From: Escherichia phage moskry
Reading direction: 5' to 3' (one strand)
Length of the DNA: 64,000 bases
Sequence record: MN850651.1
Part shown: positions 2,908-62,893 of the stretch, one piece after another
Layout: each line of letters begins with the position of its first letter
Numbering within the stretch: the first letter of the stretch is position 1
The notes under the pieces: model-generated
Database searches by the model: none
Told to the model about the DNA's origin: nothing
The model's input: only the letters and a program-made list of their open reading frames with translations
Position numbers and translations under genes: made by a program

Positions 2908-3368
2908 TAGTAAAGGTCCTCAGAGTAAAGTTCTTTTTCATTACCACCACGTTCAATACGTACTTGTCCAGCGTAAGTTGCAATAATCATTGCTTCTTCA
3001 CGTGTCCAGTAATTAGAGTATTGATCAATAAAGCCTTGGTCGTCGCCACAAACTTGCTGCGAGACTAATTGAGGACCAACTATATCAAGTACTTCAGCCA
3101 TATCTTTAGAGTAATGACGAGCACCTGGAATAATAAGAGTTCGTCCATCTTTTAATTTAAAACGATTAGCTGCACAGACAATTCGTCGTTGATACTTTTG
3201 GTTTTCATCCCAATACAGAGTCTGCCAACAGATTTCAGGAACTTCATCTAAAACATTTTGTTCTGTATATTCACCGCCGTAAGAAGCTAATTTAGCAGCC
3301 AGACTTTCCGGAGTCTCACGCGACAAAGCTTTATCTAACAGAGCTAAACGTTCTTTAAAAGTTTTCAT
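2907..3368 (-). CDS. hypothetical protein
   Basis: 153-aa ORF, start overlaps the stop of the upstream gene (coupled). Confidence 0.5.
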
Positions 3369-3694
3369 TTAAACCATCCTTTAATACGTTGCCAAATAGA
3401 TTTTTGTGCTTGTTTATTTACACCAATCGAACGAATAACCGGTTGTGACTGCTGATATTCTTTATAATCTTCTTTATAGATTTCGTAAGCTGCATCAACA
3501 AATGAACTGATCGCTGCCATGTAGTTTTTACGAAGGCCAAATGGCGCGTCATTATTTTCACGAATAACCGTATATTGGCCTGCTTTAATCTTTACAATTG
3601 TCCCTAAATAAGCCCCGTGGTACCAAATATCCCATCCTTCCTGAGTAGGTTCTGCACATTTACGAAGTTCGTTAATAATATTCAGCTTATTCAT
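3365..3694 (-). CDS. hypothetical protein
   Basis: 109-aa ORF immediately downstream of motA. Confidence 0.5.
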
Positions 3695-8315: not shown

Positions 8316-8320
8316 AATTA

Positions 8321-9268
8321 TTATTCTGTAAATAATTCAGTAACGTCTGAAATTACTTCATAACGACAAGTACGCATCTTAGCATCGCCATAGTCAACCG
8401 GGATGGATACAACATCACGTGGATGAACTTTAACCTTAACAACTTTATCTGAGCTAGAACCAAAGTAACGAATATATGATTTAGCACAAACATGTAGACC
8501 ACGGGAGCAGGTTTGAGTATCATCATCGTTAACACGAGTACGAGGCATTGAAACAACTTTACCTGGCGAGTTATCAAATGTGCCACTATAGCAATCTAAA
8601 TAGTCTTTACGAACTACTTTCCACGCATAGAAATGCCCATCTTCAGTGATTTCAATATCGTTTGCAACCAAGAAGTCGAATAAACGTTGTACAGCTTTTT
8701 CGCTTGGGTTTTCTAACAGGTTTTCAAGGAACGGCAGATAGAATTTAAAGTCTTCGCCTTTTTCCATAGAATCAATAATACGATTAACCAGTCCTGAACG
8801 AATTTCTATACCTTGATAAAATAAACTACCACCTTCAATAGTAACATTACCGTCAACAAACTTAGTAATAGCTTTCTTGATGTTAATAAGTTCGACAGCT
8901 TTACTAAGGTTTCCTGCGACCAGATTAGCTTTAATTTCTTCAAAATTTGCATGACTTGATGGGGTCGCATTGTATGCTACGCGTCCTTCAATGATTGAAA
9001 TAAATTTAGATGACGCGTTCCATACGATTTCTGGACGATGACCTGTAATAATAGGTTCATTATTTTCTGGAACTTCTTCGATTACATAAGAGGCATCGTT
9101 TGCTTCAGGGACAACGCCTTCTGCTTTAAAATTCTTAACAATCTTACGAAGAGTATCTGTTGAAATGTCGAAGTAATCGGCAATTTCTTTACGAGTCCAT
9201 TTGCCTGATTTGACCAGGCCGTAAGCTTCTAACTGTTCTTCTTGGGACAAGCATTTGATATTGTACAT
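8321..9268 (-). CDS. rIIB: rIIB protein
   Basis: 315 aa; MYNIKCL.., ..RVNDDDTQTCSRGLHVC.KSYIR.FGSSS.KVVKVKVHPRDVVSIP.. match T4 rIIB from memory. Confidence 0.95.
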   Translation of the reverse strand: MYNIKCLSQEEQLEAYGLVKSGKWTRKEIADYFDISTDTLRKIVKNFKAEGVVPEANDASYVIEEVPENNEPIITGHRPEIVWNASSKFISIIEGRVAYNATPSSHANFEEIKANLVAGNLSKAVELINIKKAITKFVDGNVTIEGGSLFYQGIEIRSGLVNRIIDSMEKGEDFKFYLPFLENLLENPSEKAVQRLFDFLVANDIEITEDGHFYAWKVVRKDYLDCYSGTFDNSPGKVVSMPRTRVNDDDTQTCSRGLHVCAKSYIRYFGSSSDKVVKVKVHPRDVVSIPVDYGDAKMRTCRYEVISDVTELFTE

Positions 9269-9277
9269 AATGTTTCC

Positions 9278-11491
9278 TTATTTGGCCGCTTCCACGGCCT
9301 TCATGAATTTAACGATTTGAGCGACCTGTTCTTTAGAAAGAGTACCACGTCGTCCCATGTATTCTGACACAATATGATAATTGGTTTCAAATTCAATAAC
9401 CATTTTATCATCATTATCGTAAGCATTATCTTTAAGCTTATCGAAAATTTTAGCACACAATTCTAACTTCTTATTCAGGTCTGTATTAGTAGCACCTGCG
9501 AATCGATTCCATCCCCAGCGATTATTTACTGTTGAGAGTTTTGCAAAGTCTTTACTGATTTCTTTGTTCTTAGAGCTAAAATACTTACTAAGGAAGTTAA
9601 GCTCTTCGTTACGAGTAATATGATTCAAATAAGGCTGTGCTCTACGACTTGGTGATACATACTCATCATAATCCACTTTATCAATTAGCGTAATATAGTC
9701 GTTAATTGATTTTTCGAACAAGCATTCTACTTCACCAAGTTTACGAACTTTCTTAGCAATCTGTGGACGGACTACAGTGAACTCTTTAATACCTGACAAA
9801 TCAGCAATACGGGTCAAGAAATTAGAGTCATAGTTCAACCAACCTTTATCTGCGTCAAGACATTCAGCATTAGAACGATTACGAACTATAGCATAACCTT
9901 GGATTTCATCAGCTTCACTCGCTGGAATAAAGAGATCTTCCGATACCCAAACATCGTTTTCATTCTTAAAGAACCGATGAGCACTTGGGGATTTAGGACG
10001 AGGCCCATTAGAACGAGTCTTGACTTCAATCCACGGCTTAACGATTTGTAAAAGCTCTGAAGTCTTGTACATGTTAATGTTGTCGCCATCAAAGATAACT
10101 TTAAGACGTTCCAGAAGTTTCATTGCATCTTCGTCTGTAGGGTCAACGAATAGTACGCTTTTACCAAAACCTCGTGGAACTTTACCGTTTAATTTAACCT
10201 CGTCTTTAGACATTTCAATTGAATTAAGAGCTCGCATTAACGGAACGCGTCCCTTAACGTCGTCAATAACAATTTCAACGTTTTTAATGTTAATGCCAAT
10301 CAGACTGTTAATTGAAATAGTTGCCGATGAGCTACCACTTTCACGAATACGACGAAGACGAGGGGATTCAACGATATCGTATACGACGCCAAGATTACAC
10401 CACTCAGGCCCCATTTTAAAACGTTTGTACAACTCAGAATAAGTTAGTTGTTCTTTAGAATATTTCAGTGATTCAATATTAGAACCAGCTTTTTCCATGT
10501 ATTTACGAGCGGTATAACCAAGAGAATCAATTTCACGGAACACATGACGTGGATATTCACAATCAATCCATTTCTTAGAATCTTCAGCAAATAATTTTGC
10601 ATCGATTTCTGCAACGCGTTTATGGATATTTGCTACTGTACGTTTATCAAATGACAATGCTTCACGAGACGGGGCTACATCTAGTTCACCCATAGGGAAT
10701 TTAATATAAGCTGTAGTGCATCGCGTCATCATCCATGTTTGTTCTTTAATAACACTTCCGATTGGATATACAATACCACCATAAACAGCCATGATATTAC
10801 CACGTTCACCCCATGGAGCTTCCTTGGCCAAATATACATCGTCAAATTCAGGAAAGTATTTAATATCTTTAACACCACGAACTTCTGCAATATCACCTAG
10901 AGGACGCATAACATATGCAATTTCGGATGCGAACTTTTCAAAATCTTCTGGGTTAACCGGTACAACTACTTCTACACCCGTACGGTCATCAGGGCCCATC
11001 TTATCTACAAAGGTTGGCTTAATCTGTGGACCACTGTCATCTTGGTAGATTACGTAACCACGAACTTCACCGTTGTGATAAGACGTAAGGTTAAACGTAT
11101 CAGTATATGCTAGTGGAGCTTTAGAGCCGAGTCCGAATCCACCAATGAAATCGTTACTCGATGTTTTAGTTGAAGCAAAATATGAGTTATAGATTCCTGG
11201 CTCTTCGTCATTACCTCGAATGGTGAAATCACTCATACCAGGACCAAAGTCTCGAACTACAAAACGTGGGTCTAAACGACCTGGAGCCTGAACAATAAAT
11301 TTATCAGTGCAACCATTAAGAATTTGTCCATCGATACAGTTTGTGATTAATTCACGTACACAAGCCAATTCTTTGTTTGTATAAAGGTCGTTAGACAAAA
11401 TCTTATAAACTTTGCTATTGCCTTGAATAGTGAATGCTGTGCTCTTACCGCCTGAACCAATAATCGTTTCTTTAGCCGTTTCAATAATCAT
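9278..11491 (-). CDS. rIIA: rIIA protein
   Basis: 737 aa; N-terminal ATPase-like region (..VRELITNCIDG..FGPGMSDF..GGFGLGSK..) matching T4 rIIA. Confidence 0.95.
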   Translation of the reverse strand: MIIETAKETIIGSGGKSTAFTIQGNSKVYKILSNDLYTNKELACVRELITNCIDGQILNGCTDKFIVQAPGRLDPRFVVRDFGPGMSDFTIRGNDEEPGIYNSYFASTKTSSNDFIGGFGLGSKAPLAYTDTFNLTSYHNGEVRGYVIYQDDSGPQIKPTFVDKMGPDDRTGVEVVVPVNPEDFEKFASEIAYVMRPLGDIAEVRGVKDIKYFPEFDDVYLAKEAPWGERGNIMAVYGGIVYPIGSVIKEQTWMMTRCTTAYIKFPMGELDVAPSREALSFDKRTVANIHKRVAEIDAKLFAEDSKKWIDCEYPRHVFREIDSLGYTARKYMEKAGSNIESLKYSKEQLTYSELYKRFKMGPEWCNLGVVYDIVESPRLRRIRESGSSSATISINSLIGINIKNVEIVIDDVKGRVPLMRALNSIEMSKDEVKLNGKVPRGFGKSVLFVDPTDEDAMKLLERLKVIFDGDNINMYKTSELLQIVKPWIEVKTRSNGPRPKSPSAHRFFKNENDVWVSEDLFIPASEADEIQGYAIVRNRSNAECLDADKGWLNYDSNFLTRIADLSGIKEFTVVRPQIAKKVRKLGEVECLFEKSINDYITLIDKVDYDEYVSPSRRAQPYLNHITRNEELNFLSKYFSSKNKEISKDFAKLSTVNNRWGWNRFAGATNTDLNKKLELCAKIFDKLKDNAYDNDDKMVIEFETNYHIVSEYMGRRGTLSKEQVAQIVKFMKAVEAAK

Positions 11492-11796: not shown

Positions 11797-12897
11797 TTAC
11801 GCTGTGAAGATTTTATCCCACATCGCAACAACTGCATCTCGATTATACTTCTTCCATACTGCTTCAGCACGTTTAACTCGAGCTTCGTATGTGTCAGTGA
11901 ATTCTAATACAGCTTTTGTGTAAAGCGCAACTACTTCTTTCTTAGGAGTAGAGGAATCAATTTCTACACGCACAGTATCTGGGTCGTATTCGAATGTCGC
12001 ATGAGGATAATCCTTAAAAACTAACTGGATTACAGGGACACCTTTAGAGATGGCTTCAATAGAACTATTCTCTACCGTACCTGTGTCAGGACACGTATTA
12101 ATAAGTGCTTTAGCTGTTTTAAGACATTCCATAATTTCACTGTGTGGAGCATCAATAATAACAGGATATTTAGCTGGTGGTGCCCATTTGCTTGGACAAT
12201 AACCAATACCATTTTCGCCTAGTGCTTTAATCGCTTCAAGAGCAACATCAGTACGACGCATTTTAGTGTCATAACGTTGTGCACTAATAATCAGATCAGT
12301 CGCCGGAAGAACTTCAGGTTTCTCATTCAAACAAATAACCGGATAATCTTCGGCTTCAAACAACGGATTTGCTCGCCAATAATCATAATCGATTTTGTCA
12401 GTCAGACCTGAAGTCATATAACAATATTTGCGTTCAAATTCACGGAAGGCTTTAGTAGGAGCATAACTCTTACCGCCATTCTTATGAATTTGAATAGTTT
12501 GGTCCCAAATTTGAACAATGCCACGAGATACCGGTTCAAATGGTGTTGCCATAAAATTCTTGTGAACTTTAGAGAGACCTGCGTCTTTAATTGCCTGAAC
12601 GGTTAGTTTAGTCGGTTCCATAGTAACAACAAAATCGTATTCATGGATGCCGGCTAGTTCAACAATCTTACGAGCCATAGTATAACTCATACCTAGACTG
12701 AATTTAGTCAGATGACCAACAGGATGGTGTGTAACTTTCCAGTCACCAAACGTGTCGTTATCAAAGCCGATATAATCAATATCAGCACCGATGGACACAA
12801 GATATTTCAACACGTTCAAATGAACCGCTTCAAGACCACCTTGTACACGTTCTGGGTTAAATGGGACTGCGCGAGATGGGATAAACATAACTTTCAT
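11797..12897 (-). CDS. putative glycosyltransferase (GT-B-like), candidate DNA sugar transferase
   Basis: 366 aa; C-terminal ..ENSSIEAISKGVPVIQL.. resembles the E-x-G-x-PV(I/V) region of GT-B transferases; sits between rIIA.1 and gene 39 where T4 has gene 60/mobA. Fold assignment is inference only. Confidence 0.45.
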   Translation of the reverse strand: MKVMFIPSRAVPFNPERVQGGLEAVHLNVLKYLVSIGADIDYIGFDNDTFGDWKVTHHPVGHLTKFSLGMSYTMARKIVELAGIHEYDFVVTMEPTKLTVQAIKDAGLSKVHKNFMATPFEPVSRGIVQIWDQTIQIHKNGGKSYAPTKAFREFERKYCYMTSGLTDKIDYDYWRANPLFEAEDYPVICLNEKPEVLPATDLIISAQRYDTKMRRTDVALEAIKALGENGIGYCPSKWAPPAKYPVIIDAPHSEIMECLKTAKALINTCPDTGTVENSSIEAISKGVPVIQLVFKDYPHATFEYDPDTVRVEIDSSTPKKEVVALYTKAVLEFTDTYEARVKRAEAVWKKYNRDAVVAMWDKIFTA

Positions 12898-17630: not shown

Positions 17631-17660
17631 ATTATACTCCATCCATCCTTGGATGTACAA
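17631..17660 (-). promoter_or_regulatory. early promoter, copy 1 of a repeated about 30-bp module (TGTACA-N17-TATAAT)
   Basis: ATTATACTCCATCCATCCTTGGATGTACAA on + strand. Confidence 0.5.
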
Positions 17661-18188: not shown

Positions 18189-18218
18189 ATTATACTCCAA
18201 CCATCCTTGGTTGTAAAC
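18189..18218 (-). promoter_or_regulatory. early promoter, copy 2 of the repeated module (GTTTAC-N18-TATAAT)
   Basis: ATTATACTCCAACCATCCTTGGTTGTAAAC on + strand; nearly identical at about 60265 and 61285. Confidence 0.5.
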
Positions 18219-58312: not shown

Positions 58313-58572
58313 TTAAAATATTCCCGCAGTTGATCAAATCCACCAATGTGACTTCCGTCAGGAGCAAACACTTGAGGCATAGTCAATCCAACTTGTGATT
58401 TACGTCCAAGCTTAACCAGAAGCTCAGCAATTTTTTCTTCATCGAATACACCTTTTTCTGGCATAACATTAATGAATTCAAATGGCTGTTTCTTAACAGT
58501 CAGCAATCGTTTAGCATTATCACAATAAATGCATTTATGAATAGTAGAGTCATACCCGTACACTTTAAACAT
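58309..58572 (-). CDS. nrdC: thioredoxin/glutaredoxin NrdC
   Basis: 87 aa from MFKVYGYDSTIHKCIYCDNAKRLL..; ..GLTMPQVFAPDGSHIGGFDQLREYFK matches T4 NrdC from memory. Confidence 0.85.
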   Translation of the reverse strand: MFKVYGYDSTIHKCIYCDNAKRLLTVKKQPFEFINVMPEKGVFDEEKIAELLVKLGRKSQVGLTMPQVFAPDGSHIGGFDQLREYFK

Positions 58573-58978
58573 TATTTTTCCTTTCATCGATTAAATATGC
58601 AACGCCAAATACAATACATGTAATAAAACCTGTGATACAGATAGAAACCAACAACACTGTACCAAAGAACCAAATCAGGTTATCTTTAGTAGTTTGTTTG
58701 ATATCCATCTCACGAATTTCTATAGCTATCGTATCACCTTTATTCAGAAGCGTATAAAACGAAGGTGATACACGCCTGTCAAAAACTCGTCCTTGTTCAT
58801 CTTTATAAACTGCAATAAATTCTAATTTAGAATATTTTCCTGTAGATTGTCCTGAGATTAATTCCACTACCTCCACAGGAATTACTTTAGTTTCCATGTA
58901 AGTATTCTGGCTGTTCCAAATGAATGGAATGATGGCAAAAACTAAAGCTGCGATAAAACAACGAAGGCTATATCTCAT
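58565..58978 (-). CDS. membrane protein (137 aa, N- and C-terminal TM segments)
   Basis: ORF track; hydrophobic termini. Confidence 0.5.
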   Translation of the reverse strand: MRYSLRCFIAALVFAIIPFIWNSQNTYMETKVIPVEVVELISGQSTGKYSKLEFIAVYKDEQGRVFDRRVSPSFYTLLNKGDTIAIEIREMDIKQTTKDNLIWFFGTVLLVSICITGFITCIVFGVAYLIDERKNNV

Positions 58979-59283
58979 TATAATGTTCTCTCAAATTTGT
59001 GGAAGCATTTACGGCATTTCAATTTCAAGTTATCAGTGGTCCAGTTAACCAGTTGGACTTGGATAGTTCCACATTCCGGGCATGGATGTTTTGCTGCCGA
59101 TTTGGCAGCATTTTCACGTCGTTCAACCATTTTCATTATTTCGTTCCATGCCGGAGGAACGAACTCTTCTTCACCGTGGATTTTATCTCGCTGAACAAAT
59201 TCGATCTTTGAACTATCGTCAATAAACTTAACCAAGCCATGATTAGTGCTCATATCAATATCCTCTAAAAGACGTAGTTTCAT
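58978..59283 (-). CDS. zinc-ribbon protein (101 aa)
   Basis: ..CPECGTIQV..CRKCFHKF.. near the C-terminus. Confidence 0.5.
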   Translation of the reverse strand: MKLRLLEDIDMSTNHGLVKFIDDSSKIEFVQRDKIHGEEEFVPPAWNEIMKMVERRENAAKSAAKHPCPECGTIQVQLVNWTTDNLKLKCRKCFHKFERTL

Positions 59284-60233
59284 TATAACACCTCAATGGC
59301 ATTTCGTAAACCATCCGCTTTCGCATTCAGAGCTTTTAACGATTTAGTTTGTTCTGCAATCTGGGCTTCGACTTCTTTCAGACGAGATTTGAGATATTCG
59401 CGTTCTTCTCTTAAGTTATCAACTTTTTCTGCTTTAGGCTCTTTAATAGGCTTAGGCTTATACTCGTTAGGGTTCTTCAACTTAATTTGAATGCGAGAAC
59501 TGTATAACATTGAACCATTATCTTCGGTTTCATCATACATTTCTACCACGTCCATGATTCTTAACATCATGCGAAGTTTATAAGACAGCGAACGAACGGT
59601 TTTGTTGCGCTTATTAATTTCTTCGGCTTTCATGGTACCGAGATTACGTGAGTAGTAATAAGGAACCTGGATATCAATTGATAATGATGCGTTACCATTA
59701 CCGGTTGGTTTGAATACTGCAGTAACCCAATCTTTAACATGAACTTTATTTGTACGATCATCGCCGCCTGTGAATAATTTACGAGAATGTTTAAAAAGCA
59801 TATTCACTTGGTTATTGAATTCACAAGCAAATTTATCAGCAAATTTAGTTTCAGGAATGGTAGATAACCAATCAGCCAAATGAGTCTTTTTAACATCATT
59901 AACAATAGTGAATTCAACCAAATCGGTTTTAGATGTCACAGATTTAATAAAGCTCGGCTTCATAAAGTTTTTAATGTTATCGCGAGCTACAGTAGAAGAT
60001 AATAAACGAGAACGTTTGAACCATTGAAGCAACGTCCCTAACGAATGAGAATACGCATTTTGAGTATCTTTACAGATATGATTTTCTTGGCCTATGTATG
60101 TACCAAAATCGCGAAGAATACCACTTACTACATCTCGGTGTGGAACATCAAATCCTAGTGCACCAGAAGCACGTTGGGCATGAACGTTAGCGATAAGACC
60201 TGCAAAGTATTCAATGTAATGTGAACGTGTCAT
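59283..60233 (-). CDS. hypothetical protein with C-terminal coiled coil (316 aa)
   Basis: ORF track; heptad-like C-terminal 50 aa (..LKSRLKEVEAQIAEQTKSLKALNAKADGLRNAIEVL). Confidence 0.5.
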   Translation of the reverse strand: MTRSHYIEYFAGLIANVHAQRASGALGFDVPHRDVVSGILRDFGTYIGQENHICKDTQNAYSHSLGTLLQWFKRSRLLSSTVARDNIKNFMKPSFIKSVTSKTDLVEFTIVNDVKKTHLADWLSTIPETKFADKFACEFNNQVNMLFKHSRKLFTGGDDRTNKVHVKDWVTAVFKPTGNGNASLSIDIQVPYYYSRNLGTMKAEEINKRNKTVRSLSYKLRMMLRIMDVVEMYDETEDNGSMLYSSRIQIKLKNPNEYKPKPIKEPKAEKVDNLREEREYLKSRLKEVEAQIAEQTKSLKALNAKADGLRNAIEVL

Positions 60234-60260
60234 AATATTTTCCTCTCATTAAGATAGATT

Positions 60261-60290
60261 CATTATACTCCAACCATCCTTGGTTGTAAA
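60261..60290 (-). promoter_or_regulatory. early promoter, copy 3 of the repeated module (GTTTAC-N18-TATAAT)
   Basis: ATTATACTCCAACCATCCTTGGTTGTAAAC, identical to the copy at about 18189. Confidence 0.5.
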
Positions 60291-60295
60291 CTATT

Positions 60296-61255
60296 TTATG
60301 ATTTTAATGCATTCATTGCGTTAAAAAGTTTAGAATACTGCAACTGGAGATTCGTTACAACACTTTGAGCATCACGAAGTTTAGCTTGTGCTTTGTCAAG
60401 TTCAACAGACAGTTGGTCCATAGTGGCCTTGATTTGATTATAATGGTAATCTTCGGCCGGAAGAAGGTCATTAGAAACATTTAGTTTTACTGCAGACAGT
60501 TTGCACACATTTGGCAAACCTTTAAACATTGATTTACCCGAAGTAGAATAAGCACTTAGGACTTCGGCCTGTTCAATTGGGGTCCCAGTAAGCGATGCTT
60601 CAAACGTTGCATTTTCCTTTTTAAGATTTTGATAATATTCGGAGTCTTTGTGCCACCATGGCGCAGGAACCTTTTTACCAATAGATACACGAGCCTGGAT
60701 AGCGATATGGCCCTTATTCTTGATAGGGTTGATAATATTAAGCTCACGAGAATAAATTGCTTTAATCTGGTGAATATTATCACCTAAAACTTCCAACGCT
60801 TGGTGGAATACACGAGCAACGTTATCATTCTTAGGTTTATACGTAAGAGTGAACTCATTCTCACTGATAACCATGATTTCCAACTTATCGTAAGTATATT
60901 TCAAATGTTTCATGTTAATTGCTTGAGGATGAATACGAGAAGCAATGGCCATCAGATTGTTAAGGTTATTCCGGAACTGCTTAGCGAAATATTGTCCTTC
61001 ACCGCCAATACAAAAATTACGAAGTTTCTGTTTGGCTAATAAACGGCTGAACTCACCATTTTTAATGAACTCTTTAACGGGTGTGTTAGTAACGCATTCA
61101 AATTGAGTAAACTTACGAGAAGTAATCCCATAATATGAACAGACTTCCTCAATCTCTTCAGGAGTCTTTACAGGCATACGGATAGGATTAGGTCCTGGAG
61201 TATATGCGTTCGAGGTAAATTCTTTGATAAGTTCTTTACGTGTAATAAAAGCCAT
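60296..61255 (-). CDS. hypothetical protein with C-terminal coiled coil (319 aa)
   Basis: ORF track; C-terminal ..LDKAQAKLRDAQSVVTNLQLQYSKLFNAMNALKS. Confidence 0.5.
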   Translation of the reverse strand: MAFITRKELIKEFTSNAYTPGPNPIRMPVKTPEEIEEVCSYYGITSRKFTQFECVTNTPVKEFIKNGEFSRLLAKQKLRNFCIGGEGQYFAKQFRNNLNNLMAIASRIHPQAINMKHLKYTYDKLEIMVISENEFTLTYKPKNDNVARVFHQALEVLGDNIHQIKAIYSRELNIINPIKNKGHIAIQARVSIGKKVPAPWWHKDSEYYQNLKKENATFEASLTGTPIEQAEVLSAYSTSGKSMFKGLPNVCKLSAVKLNVSNDLLPAEDYHYNQIKATMDQLSVELDKAQAKLRDAQSVVTNLQLQYSKLFNAMNALKS

Positions 61256-61281
61256 TTTATATTCCTCATGTTGAAAAATTT

Positions 61282-61310
61282 ATTATACTCCAACCATCCT
61301 TGGTTGTACA
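61282..61310 (-). promoter_or_regulatory. early promoter, copy 4 of the repeated module (TGTACA-N17-TATAAT)
   Basis: ATTATACTCCAACCATCCTTGGTTGTACA. Confidence 0.5.
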
Positions 61311-62306
61311 TCATTCCTTAAGAAGTTTTACTACTTGAATAAGATTAGCTCGTTCTGTTTTATTTTTACCATTTAAGCCTGCTAATCGTGAGATTTCATC
61401 GTCAGTCTGTTGAATAGTTACATTAAGTTCGTTAATCAAAGCTTCAAAGTATTTGATTTGCTCAGCATGTTTTGATTCAAATTTCTGAACAGGAATAACG
61501 TCTTGGTTCAGTTCATCAATAAGGTCTTTAAGAGCATCTTCTTGGTTGATATCATATTCAACTTCTTTTATTTCTTCAACGAGCTCGTCTTTATATCTAA
61601 CGTCTTTTAGTCCTGGTGCTGGTCCTGAAATCTCTTCTTTAAGAGTACAAACATATCCAATACGGTATCCAATGCCGTCTCGCTTGATATCAACTTCGTC
61701 GATAAATCCACAATGTTTAAGACCAGAGCCGATTAGGTCAAAATATCCTTGACGTCGTCCTTCAAACGTTACACGAACTACTAAGACAGTTTTACCTGCA
61801 ACCTTTTGAAGCTCACATTTATAAAAGTCAGTTGAACCTGAATAACTTGGATGAGTTTTAAAGTTCATCTGACGATCTAGGCCCATTTGTAAGCGTGCTG
61901 TTACGGCCATAAAACGTGTTTGGTTCTCGTTAAGATGAGCAACAATCCATTTCAAAGGCATTTTACACTGTTCACGACCGAACAAATCAGTACGTCCTAG
62001 ATTACGCAGGATGTTGTTAGAGTTAATCATCGACAGAACGTTAAGTTTATTCAGCGCGCTGAAGATTCCATCAGCCATTGATTTTCCATAACCTTTACAC
62101 GCTTTAATAAGTGCTCGCGGCAGATTAGTATAGATTTCAGACGGCATATGAAAATCAAATTTACTAACCAGTAATTGATGAACTTGGATAGCAATTTGTT
62201 CATAATTAAGTGCTCTGCGATCGTTATGGTCTTTAAACCACACTTTAATCTGTGAAGCACATAAACCGTTAATTTCATGTTTTACCGCATCAGATGTAAT
62301 GCTCAT
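61311..62306 (-). CDS. hypothetical protein with C-terminal coiled coil (331 aa)
   Basis: ORF track. Confidence 0.5.
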   Translation of the reverse strand: MSITSDAVKHEINGLCASQIKVWFKDHNDRRALNYEQIAIQVHQLLVSKFDFHMPSEIYTNLPRALIKACKGYGKSMADGIFSALNKLNVLSMINSNNILRNLGRTDLFGREQCKMPLKWIVAHLNENQTRFMAVTARLQMGLDRQMNFKTHPSYSGSTDFYKCELQKVAGKTVLVVRVTFEGRRQGYFDLIGSGLKHCGFIDEVDIKRDGIGYRIGYVCTLKEEISGPAPGLKDVRYKDELVEEIKEVEYDINQEDALKDLIDELNQDVIPVQKFESKHAEQIKYFEALINELNVTIQQTDDEISRLAGLNGKNKTERANLIQVVKLLKE

Positions 62307-62368
62307 AACTATTTCCTCAGATTGAATTGGAACTCAAAACCATTATAACCCGTCCTTGGGTAAAGCGT

Positions 62369-62893
62369 TTATGCGTGAACCGTCTTTAAACGTTCTTCAA
62401 ATTTCCGAAGAAGTGCTTGGCGTTCTGCTCGTTGTTCCGTATAAGTTTTAATACGACCTGAAGTGAGGGCGTATTGTTCGTTTACCGATTCCTTCATAAA
62501 ATCAGGAATCTCACGACAAGCTTTTATTTCGTCGAACTTGTCAATAACTGCTTGTTGTTCTGCAATCAGATTGTTGTAGTATTCGATATCCGATTTAATG
62601 TTTTGGATATCAGACTCAGTAGGCATGTTACGTGCTTTACGTTTTGCCTGATACTCTGCGTTTGTAGCACGACTCCAGTGAAGAGTACGTTTTTTGTTAG
62701 TGTTTTTATAGACTTCCAAAATCCCAACTGAATCGATGATAACAATCCAGTTCCAACGGCTTTTGTAAATCTCTCCTCCAGAAACGGTAATCTCGTTACC
62801 GCATGCTACTTCATTAAAGAACTTGCTTTGTGCTTCAGATTTAAATTTACCGTCGTTATAATTTACCAGGTTGAAAATATCTTTAGCGTTCAT
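62369..62893 (-). CDS. hypothetical protein (174 aa)
   Basis: ORF track. Confidence 0.5.
   Translation of the reverse strand: MNAKDIFNLVNYNDGKFKSEAQSKFFNEVACGNEITVSGGEIYKSRWNWIVIIDSVGILEVYKNTNKKRTLHWSRATNAEYQAKRKARNMPTESDIQNIKSDIEYYNNLIAEQQAVIDKFDEIKACREIPDFMKESVNEQYALTSGRIKTYTEQRAERQALLRKFEERLKTVHA

Follow-up and report, generated by a model that had tools for sequence, protein, structure and literature searches.

Three tandem genes of Escherichia phage moskry as probable paralogs of the T4 NrdC.3–NrdC.6 type and candidate inhibitors of host immunity

The window analysed here is a stretch of 64,000 nucleotides from Escherichia phage moskry (MN850651.1). It carries, between nucleotides 59283 and 62306, three consecutive genes designated A, B and C, the products of which contain 316, 319 and 331 amino acids (AA), respectively. 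These are most likely tandem paralogs of an early superfamily specific to the Tevenvirinae, represented in coliphage T4 by NrdC.3 to NrdC.6, with products that neutralise host immune proteins. A first-pass annotation, made from the letters of the window, had placed three proteins of about 320 AA at exactly this position and had described them as unrelated N-terminal domains joined to similar coiled-coil tails. The family and the conservation of the tail over the body were borne out by the present work; the bodies are diverged homologs and not unrelated effectors. The genes themselves are not new to the catalogues: they fall into three Pfam/PHROG families without an assigned function, and for one of these a member active against the Dsr1 defence has been published. 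What is added is the link between these families and the pattern of a conserved tail on a diverging body, and not a new type of system.

Family assignment

The protein encoded by gene A is 56% identical to T4 NrdC.3 over its full length (316 AA) and matches phrog_1435 (E-value=2.6e-105), again full length; this PHROG also contains T4 NrdC.4. Relatives of A carry a precomputed assignment to Pfam PF26897. Protein B possesses a DUF7235 (PF23882) domain which covers model positions 1–307 of 307 (E-value=5.6e-123; 410.7 bits, the gathering score being 30), as does T4 NrdC.5 a domain of the same family (E-value=5.3e-126; 420.6 bits). NrdC.5 is the best T4 match of B, at 24% identity (E-value=1e-10), and the B-type allele is confined to approximately 130 Mosigvirus records. 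Protein C matches phrog_2257 over its full length (E-value=1.2e-127), has a precomputed assignment to PF26899, and shows 29–33% identity to NrdC.6 proteins from Tequatrovirus and Dhakavirus.

Searches for homologous proteins returned close relatives only, with identities of at least 55% (A), 79% (B) and 68% (C). A related-locus search with the NrdC.3/4 alignment gave only seven loci, and an exhaustive search of representatives with the family of C gave six clusters, all of the NrdC.6 type, and thus no added alignment depth. No match was found in sequence searches of the PDB or in a search of NCBIfam, while Pfam returned only sub-threshold coiled-coil noise for A and C.

Homology of the protein bodies

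BLASTP of the three proteins against each other gave nothing significant, and hhalign with shallow profiles made from close relatives (effective number of sequences, Neff, below 2) detected the A–B tail alone (E-value=5.8e-5). Larger family alignments were therefore built from the locus of 25 T-even genomes. With these, NrdC.3 matched NrdC.4 (E-value=6.5e-13, 211 columns), and a combined NrdC.3+4 profile matched NrdC.5 over nearly the full length (Probab=93% E-value=3.8e-7, 237 columns). When the last 60 residues were removed the matches to NrdC.5 persisted, with E-values of 1.3e-6 for NrdC.3+4 and 4.5e-6 for NrdC.4; the homology of A and B thus extends beyond the tail into the body.

This bears directly on the earlier proposal, in which three unrelated effector domains each sit on a common coiled-coil module that docks to one shared partner. 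The blank BLASTP result, the specific alignment of the A and B tails and the stronger conservation of tails than of bodies (see below) are all in keeping with such an arrangement. The N-terminal domains, on whose lack of kinship the proposal hinged, are homologous after all when compared as profiles with the tails removed; this largely refutes it, and the motifs and predicted order of secondary structure elements that the proteins have in common, together with a tail in C that resembles those of A and B only weakly, leave it very improbable.

The position of C was less direct. Comparisons of NrdC.6 with NrdC.3, NrdC.4 and NrdC.5 were weak and depended on the alignment used (E-values of 4e-4 to 0.1); the best of them, likewise alignment-dependent, had an E-value of 4.3e-4 and a score of 35 versus 13 ± 2 for column shuffles. 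The connection was supplied by a bridge family, consisting of single genes for proteins of 326–334 AA which occupy this locus in the phages Mineola (Klebsiella), STML-198 (Salmonella) and Merlin (Citrobacter). The bridge family matches NrdC.5 (E-value=3.9e-8), NrdC.3 (E-value=1.9e-5), the NrdC.3+4+5 profile (E-value=4.4e-12) and NrdC.6 (E-value=5.9e-6). The last of these matches spans 147 columns in the body, and its score of 47.6 compares with 14.2 ± 2.6 (maximum 22.2) for column shuffles and with 13.6 for the reversed target. C is thereby linked to A and B transitively. In addition, a search with a hidden Markov model of NrdC.3+4+5 (HMMER) ranked NrdC.6 proteins at the top of the non-members, at colinear positions and with non-significant values.

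These weak, alignment-dependent direct comparisons and the non-significant HMMER matches would also be expected if C were no true homolog of A and B, being instead an unrelated helical protein with an acquired coiled-coil end and with links due to chance or helical bias. We consider this distinctly unlikely, given that the match between the bridge family and the body of NrdC.6 stands far above its shuffled and reversed controls, that the NrdC.6 proteins rank first among non-members in colinear positions, that a Foldseek search with the model of C recovers Mineola_080, which belongs to the bridge family, and that C has motifs, locus, size and a terminal LLK in common with the other two. Overall, A, B and C are judged to be paralogs within one superfamily, a placement held with confidence for A and B and with moderate confidence for C. 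The superfamily proposed by the present analysis would comprise NrdC.3, NrdC.4, NrdC.5, NrdC.6 and the 330-AA genes of the Klebsiella, Salmonella and Citrobacter T4-like phages.

Two candidates for further members were rejected. The 260-AA genes which adjoin the bridge members (Mineola_081, STML gp148 and Merlin92) do not belong to the family, and a region of Acinetobacter phage Acj9 that had been guessed to correspond was the wrong locus, its open reading frames being without a family match.

Shared architecture and structural models

An alignment of ten sequences revealed a common plan. The N-terminal helical domain contains two motifs, the first being roughly S-R-L-L-S...[IL]-[KR]-N-F and the second N-Q..[LM]...A-[SR]-[RK]-L..G-D. 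It is followed by a small alpha/beta middle part and by a variable linker that ends in a near-invariant proline located about 50 residues before the C-terminus. The last element is a terminal helix of 45–50 residues with heptad repeats, ending in L..A...LK; two leucines are also near-invariant.

Structural prediction of the N-terminal domains, which had been suggested as a check, was carried out with AlphaFold2 independently for A and C. The N-terminal domain of C was modelled with a predicted local distance difference test (pLDDT) score of 80–90, and A poorly, with a score of 53. The secondary structure strings of the two models agree at 67% of aligned positions versus 42 ± 7% in shifted controls; this comparison is soft because of the poor model of A. 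With the model of C, Foldseek found Mineola_080 and proteins of 300–335 AA from Enterobacter and Acinetobacter T4-like phages (E-values of 1e-8 to 2e-4; template modelling scores of 0.4–0.46). With the low-confidence model of A it found the ortholog of A and otherwise weak matches only.

C-terminal tails

The tails were examined using a simple heptad score, for which each protein was compared with 300 shuffles (Table 1). The score peaks in the final 45 residues of A and B, where residues 274–316 of A and 275–317 of B show, by eye, an unbroken 3–4 hydrophobic spacing over about six heptads. In C the heptads run from residue 284 to 308 (3.5 heptads), are broken by GLNGKN, and resume with one more at 322–329. 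The AlphaFold2 models follow this division, with a single long terminal helix at residues 275–315 of A (pLDDT 74–88) and two helices, 281–309 and 313–330, in C. The claim that all three proteins end in a heptad-rich segment of this kind thus stands for A and B and in part for C, the repeat of which is shorter and interrupted. The same division was seen when the tails were compared with one another: hhalign with tails only aligned NrdC.3 and NrdC.5 in register (E-value=4.2e-5 versus 0.047 with the target reversed), and NrdC.6 matched the other types weakly (E-values of 0.01–0.02), so that a similar tail was upheld for the pair A and B and is weak for C.

Among orthologs the tail is more conserved than the body in NrdC.3 (67 versus 56% identity), NrdC.4 (62 versus 41%), NrdC.5 (43 versus 26%) and NrdC.6 (58–60 versus 29%), and in most ortholog pairs no other segment is as well conserved. 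The values agree with a quickly changing body joined to a conserved tail. Such conservation is consistent with a conserved interaction, for which self-association, giving a dimer or higher oligomer, is the simplest candidate and is at least as likely as docking to a shared partner. The possibility that the terminal LK is the product of a promoter or UP-element constraint on the DNA was rejected as the main cause, since A, which has no promoter downstream of it, ends in the same way.

The NrdC.6 of T4 deserves a comment here. In the T4 RefSeq entry (NC_000866) this protein is annotated as having 275 AA and lacks the coiled-coil tail. In other Tequatroviruses, and in the T4 stock used for HIDEN-SEQ, it has 295–296 AA, and the tail (…SKAKSEREKLIKIVDLLKS) is encoded in T4 just downstream in another frame, at nucleotides 12000–12070, upstream of nrdC.5. 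The length elsewhere and the out-of-frame tail suggest that the T4 reference contains a frameshift or an error of sequencing.

A probable role against host defences

Functional evidence on a family member comes from T4, in which a deletion mutant regains plating on cells with the SIR2 defence gene dsr1 when nrdC.5 is supplied from a plasmid (PMC9391042). The flanking genes encode further inhibitors of defence systems, namely Gp49.2 against OLD (PMC13096335) and, both in bioRxiv 10.1101/2025.11.20.689424, NrdC.1 against Septu and bas37_0203 against Druantia III. The coordinates of bas37_0203 identify it as the NrdC.8 ortholog (175 AA) of phage Bas37, and hence the counterpart of the gene at 62369–62893 in the window. 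The locus as a whole holds at least four other known anti-defence genes.

Family genes occur in one to four tandem copies, with one in phage Bas43, three in JS98, three in the window and four in T4; phage ACG-C40 retains only a deletion remnant of the array. A, B and C retain 56, 24 and 29% identity to their respective T4 counterparts, as against 91% for the conserved NrdC and 87% for NrdC.10. Dispensability, variable copy number and very fast divergence are the usual signature of genes engaged in an arms race. As regards dispensability, transposon insertions in nrdC.3 to nrdC.6 are tolerated in T4 and in Bas37 on K-12. Taken together with the anti-defence neighbours, these features make early inhibitors of host immunity the best reading of A, B and C, and the fact that one T4 member disarms Dsr1 suggests that they are probably anti-defence genes. 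Taken gene by gene, such a role is plausible in the case of B, and for A and C it is speculative.

The proteins would be made immediately after infection, A and B each under its own promoter-early stem-loop (PeSL) cassette, and would bind host immune proteins directly and neutralise them. The rapidly diverging body would carry the specificity for the target, and the conserved tail would oligomerise the protein into a dimer or higher form. It is also possible, if somewhat doubtful, that the array constitutes a modular anti-immunity toolkit, the coiled-coil tails assembling homo- or hetero-oligomers of the paralogs and each body recognising a different immune sensor, the sensors being Dsr1-like SIR2 NADases and others. 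Were this so, the tandem array together with PeSL-mediated shuffling would swap specificities in the manner of the tail-fibre adhesins of T-even phages.

Several points weigh against a defence-directed superfamily of three paralogs. The anti-Dsr1 evidence concerns T4 NrdC.5 and not A, B or C themselves, and with B only 24% identical to that protein its target may differ or have been lost. In the part of the HIDEN-SEQ supplementary tables covered here, nrdC.3 to nrdC.6 show no significant depletion. To these must be added, on the side of homology, the weak direct profile comparisons of NrdC.6, the transitive nature of the link to C and the poor model of A.

The first of these points leave room for an alternative in which the three proteins are homologous paralogs and serve some other accessory early function, for example in host takeover, the effect on Dsr1 being lineage-specific or indirect. 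That a single member, T4 NrdC.5, has a phenotype, and this by plasmid complementation, is in line with it, as is the lack of depletion in the HIDEN-SEQ tables just mentioned. We nevertheless regard it as unlikely, because proven anti-defence genes are concentrated at the locus, the family genes are dispensable, copy-variable and very fast-diverging, and the syntenic spot in Serratia phage 92A1 is occupied by a gene for nicotinamide phosphoribosyltransferase (NAMPT), which we take to be a hallmark enzyme of counter-defence by NAD+ reconstitution. Neutralisation of host immune proteins therefore remains the preferred reading, and on this basis a shortlist for counter-defence screens would consist of the Mosigvirus genes A and C and of NrdC.3, NrdC.4 and NrdC.6 in T4. 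The superfamily also offers a structural hypothesis of the mechanism by which NrdC.5 blocks Dsr1.

Promoter modules

The annotation had also noted copies of a repeated promoter module ahead of two of the genes, and this was confirmed. Exact copies of a 26-mer, ACAACCAAGGATGGTTGGAGTATAAT, are present on the minus strand at 60262–60287, upstream of A, and at 61282–61307, upstream of B. No copies are expected by chance in the window. A third exact copy lies at 18189–18214 (-) and one with two mismatches at 17631–17656 (-); these precede small open reading frames about 42 kb from the array.

The PeSL cassette has been described as TTTACW-N17-TAYWAT with a stem-loop, and a part in the modular shuffling of genes within the hyperplastic regions of T4-type phages has been proposed for it (PMC2839356; PMC4122927). 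By its sequence the 26-nt module before A and B is this published cassette. The promoter before A matches the sigma-70 consensus at 11 of 12 positions. Between the -35 and -10 elements lies a 5-bp stem with an AGGA loop, and compensatory changes preserve the stem in T4 (CCACA/TGTGG, AGCCA/TGGCT and TACCA/TGGTA) and in other copies in the window. The module copies of the window themselves differ by one compensatory pair in the stem (ATCCA/TGGAT versus AACCA/TGGTT).

The module before C is a variant that retains the stem-loop and in which TTTACC and TATAAT are separated by only 11 nt, and with this spacing the sigma-70 scan gave no promoter. The element AAACGCTTTA resembles a MotA box and is placed 13 nt from the -10 element, and the same arrangement is found in T4 ahead of nrdC.7. 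With its MotA-like box at this distance, the module before C would be a middle promoter of the MotA type and not a sigma-70 early one.

Table 1. Genes, promoter modules and C-terminal tails of the A-B-C array (positions in the window)
Feature	Position	Strand	Size	Type or elements	Heptad score against 300 shuffles
Gene A	59283–60233	-	316 AA	NrdC.3-type	
Tail of A (residues 274–316)	59286–59414	-		heptad-repeat helix	z 4.3; 0/300 reach score
Promoter before A	60262–60290	-		PeSL-type early promoter; TTTACA, 17-nt spacer, TATAAT; stem-loop AACCA-AGGA-TGGTT in spacer	
Gene B	60296–61255	-	319 AA	NrdC.5-type, Pfam DUF7235	
Tail of B (residues 275–319)	60299–60433	-		heptad-repeat helix	z 5.0; 0/300
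Promoter before B	61282–61310	-		PeSL-type early promoter; TGTACA, 17-nt spacer, TATAAT; stem-loop as before A	
Gene C	61311–62306	-	331 AA	NrdC.6-type	
Tail of C (residues 281–331)	61314–61466	-		helix, Gly-containing break, helix	z 2.8; 2/300
Module before C	62342–62370	-		variant module; AAACGCTTTA, stem-loop ACCCA-AGGA-CGGGT, TATAAT	

Genomic setting

Many genomes of Mosigvirus (RB69-like T-even phages) show 97–98% identity to the 3.6-kb stretch which holds A, B and C. The gene order of the region is syntenic with nrdC–nrdC.10 of T4. The surroundings, on the minus strand, comprise nrdD, endonuclease VII, pin and nrdC and then the early genes of the "nrdC.x" series, with the array in the hyperplastic region bounded by nrdC.8/nrdC.10 on one side and nrdC on the other. 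The three genes adjoin each other on this strand and the ATG of each is preceded by a Shine-Dalgarno-like AGGA or GAGG. Their order agrees with that in T4, JS98 and Bas37, B lying between the NrdC.6-type and the NrdC.3/4-type genes; the window has no NrdC.4 copy. In the Mosigvirus Bas47 (AlbertHofmann) the orthologs of A, B and C are bas47_0193, bas47_0194 and bas47_0195, respectively.

Directly upstream of C, at 62369–62893 (-), is the gene for a 174-AA NrdC.8 ortholog with 73% identity to T4 NrdC.8. A gene at 58565–58978 (-) specifies an NrdC.7-like membrane protein which is 41% identical to T4 NrdC.7; it is placed between nrdC and an nrdC.2-like gene, and in T4 nrdC.7 adjoins nrdC.8. In passing, no homolog of the anti-Septu protein NrdC.1 was seen in the stretch of the window around the NrdC.7-like gene.

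In phage ACG-C40, nucleotides 3230–3638 hold a 71-AA fragment from the start of NrdC.5 and, after it, a remnant of the NrdC.3 tail that is not annotated. This natural deletion took out NrdC.4 together with the greater part of NrdC.3 and of NrdC.5, which shows that the array can be dispensed with and tends to recombine. In Serratia phage 92A1 the NAMPT gene lies at 8320–9729, in the syntenic spot between nrdC.10 and nrdC, which holds no gene of the NrdC.3–6 family.

Comparison with known systems

The modules before A and B resemble the PeSL cassettes of Arbiol et al. (2010) and Comeau et al. (2014) in their TTTACA-N17-TATAAT layout, in the stem-loop in the spacer, and in being repeated beside variable open reading frames in a hyperplastic region; they differ in their stem, (N)CCA-AGGA-TGG(N), which is specific to this phage group. 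With regard to the T4 proteins NrdC.3 and NrdC.4 (phrog_1435, PF26897), A is close to the former, as noted above, and detectably related to the latter, the difference being that T4 has an NrdC.4 copy and the window does not. C represents the Mosigvirus form of NrdC.6 (phrog_2257, PF26899), with its tail 58–60% identical; it differs in an acidic insert of about 40 residues ahead of the tail, and in having its tail in frame, unlike the T4 RefSeq entry. B and T4 NrdC.5 (DUF7235, phrog_2351; Srikant et al., eLife 2022) have in common the full-length Pfam model, the gene position, a similar length and a tail that ends in ...KL.NA.NAL, and differ in that only about a quarter of their residues are identical. 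A last comparison is with DSAD1, an inhibitor of the SIR2 NADase defence DSR2, which offers a functional analogy only, that of a phage protein blocking a defence-associated sirtuin. The binding mode of DSAD1 is known from cryo-electron microscopy structures, and proteins of the NrdC.5 type may work in a like manner.

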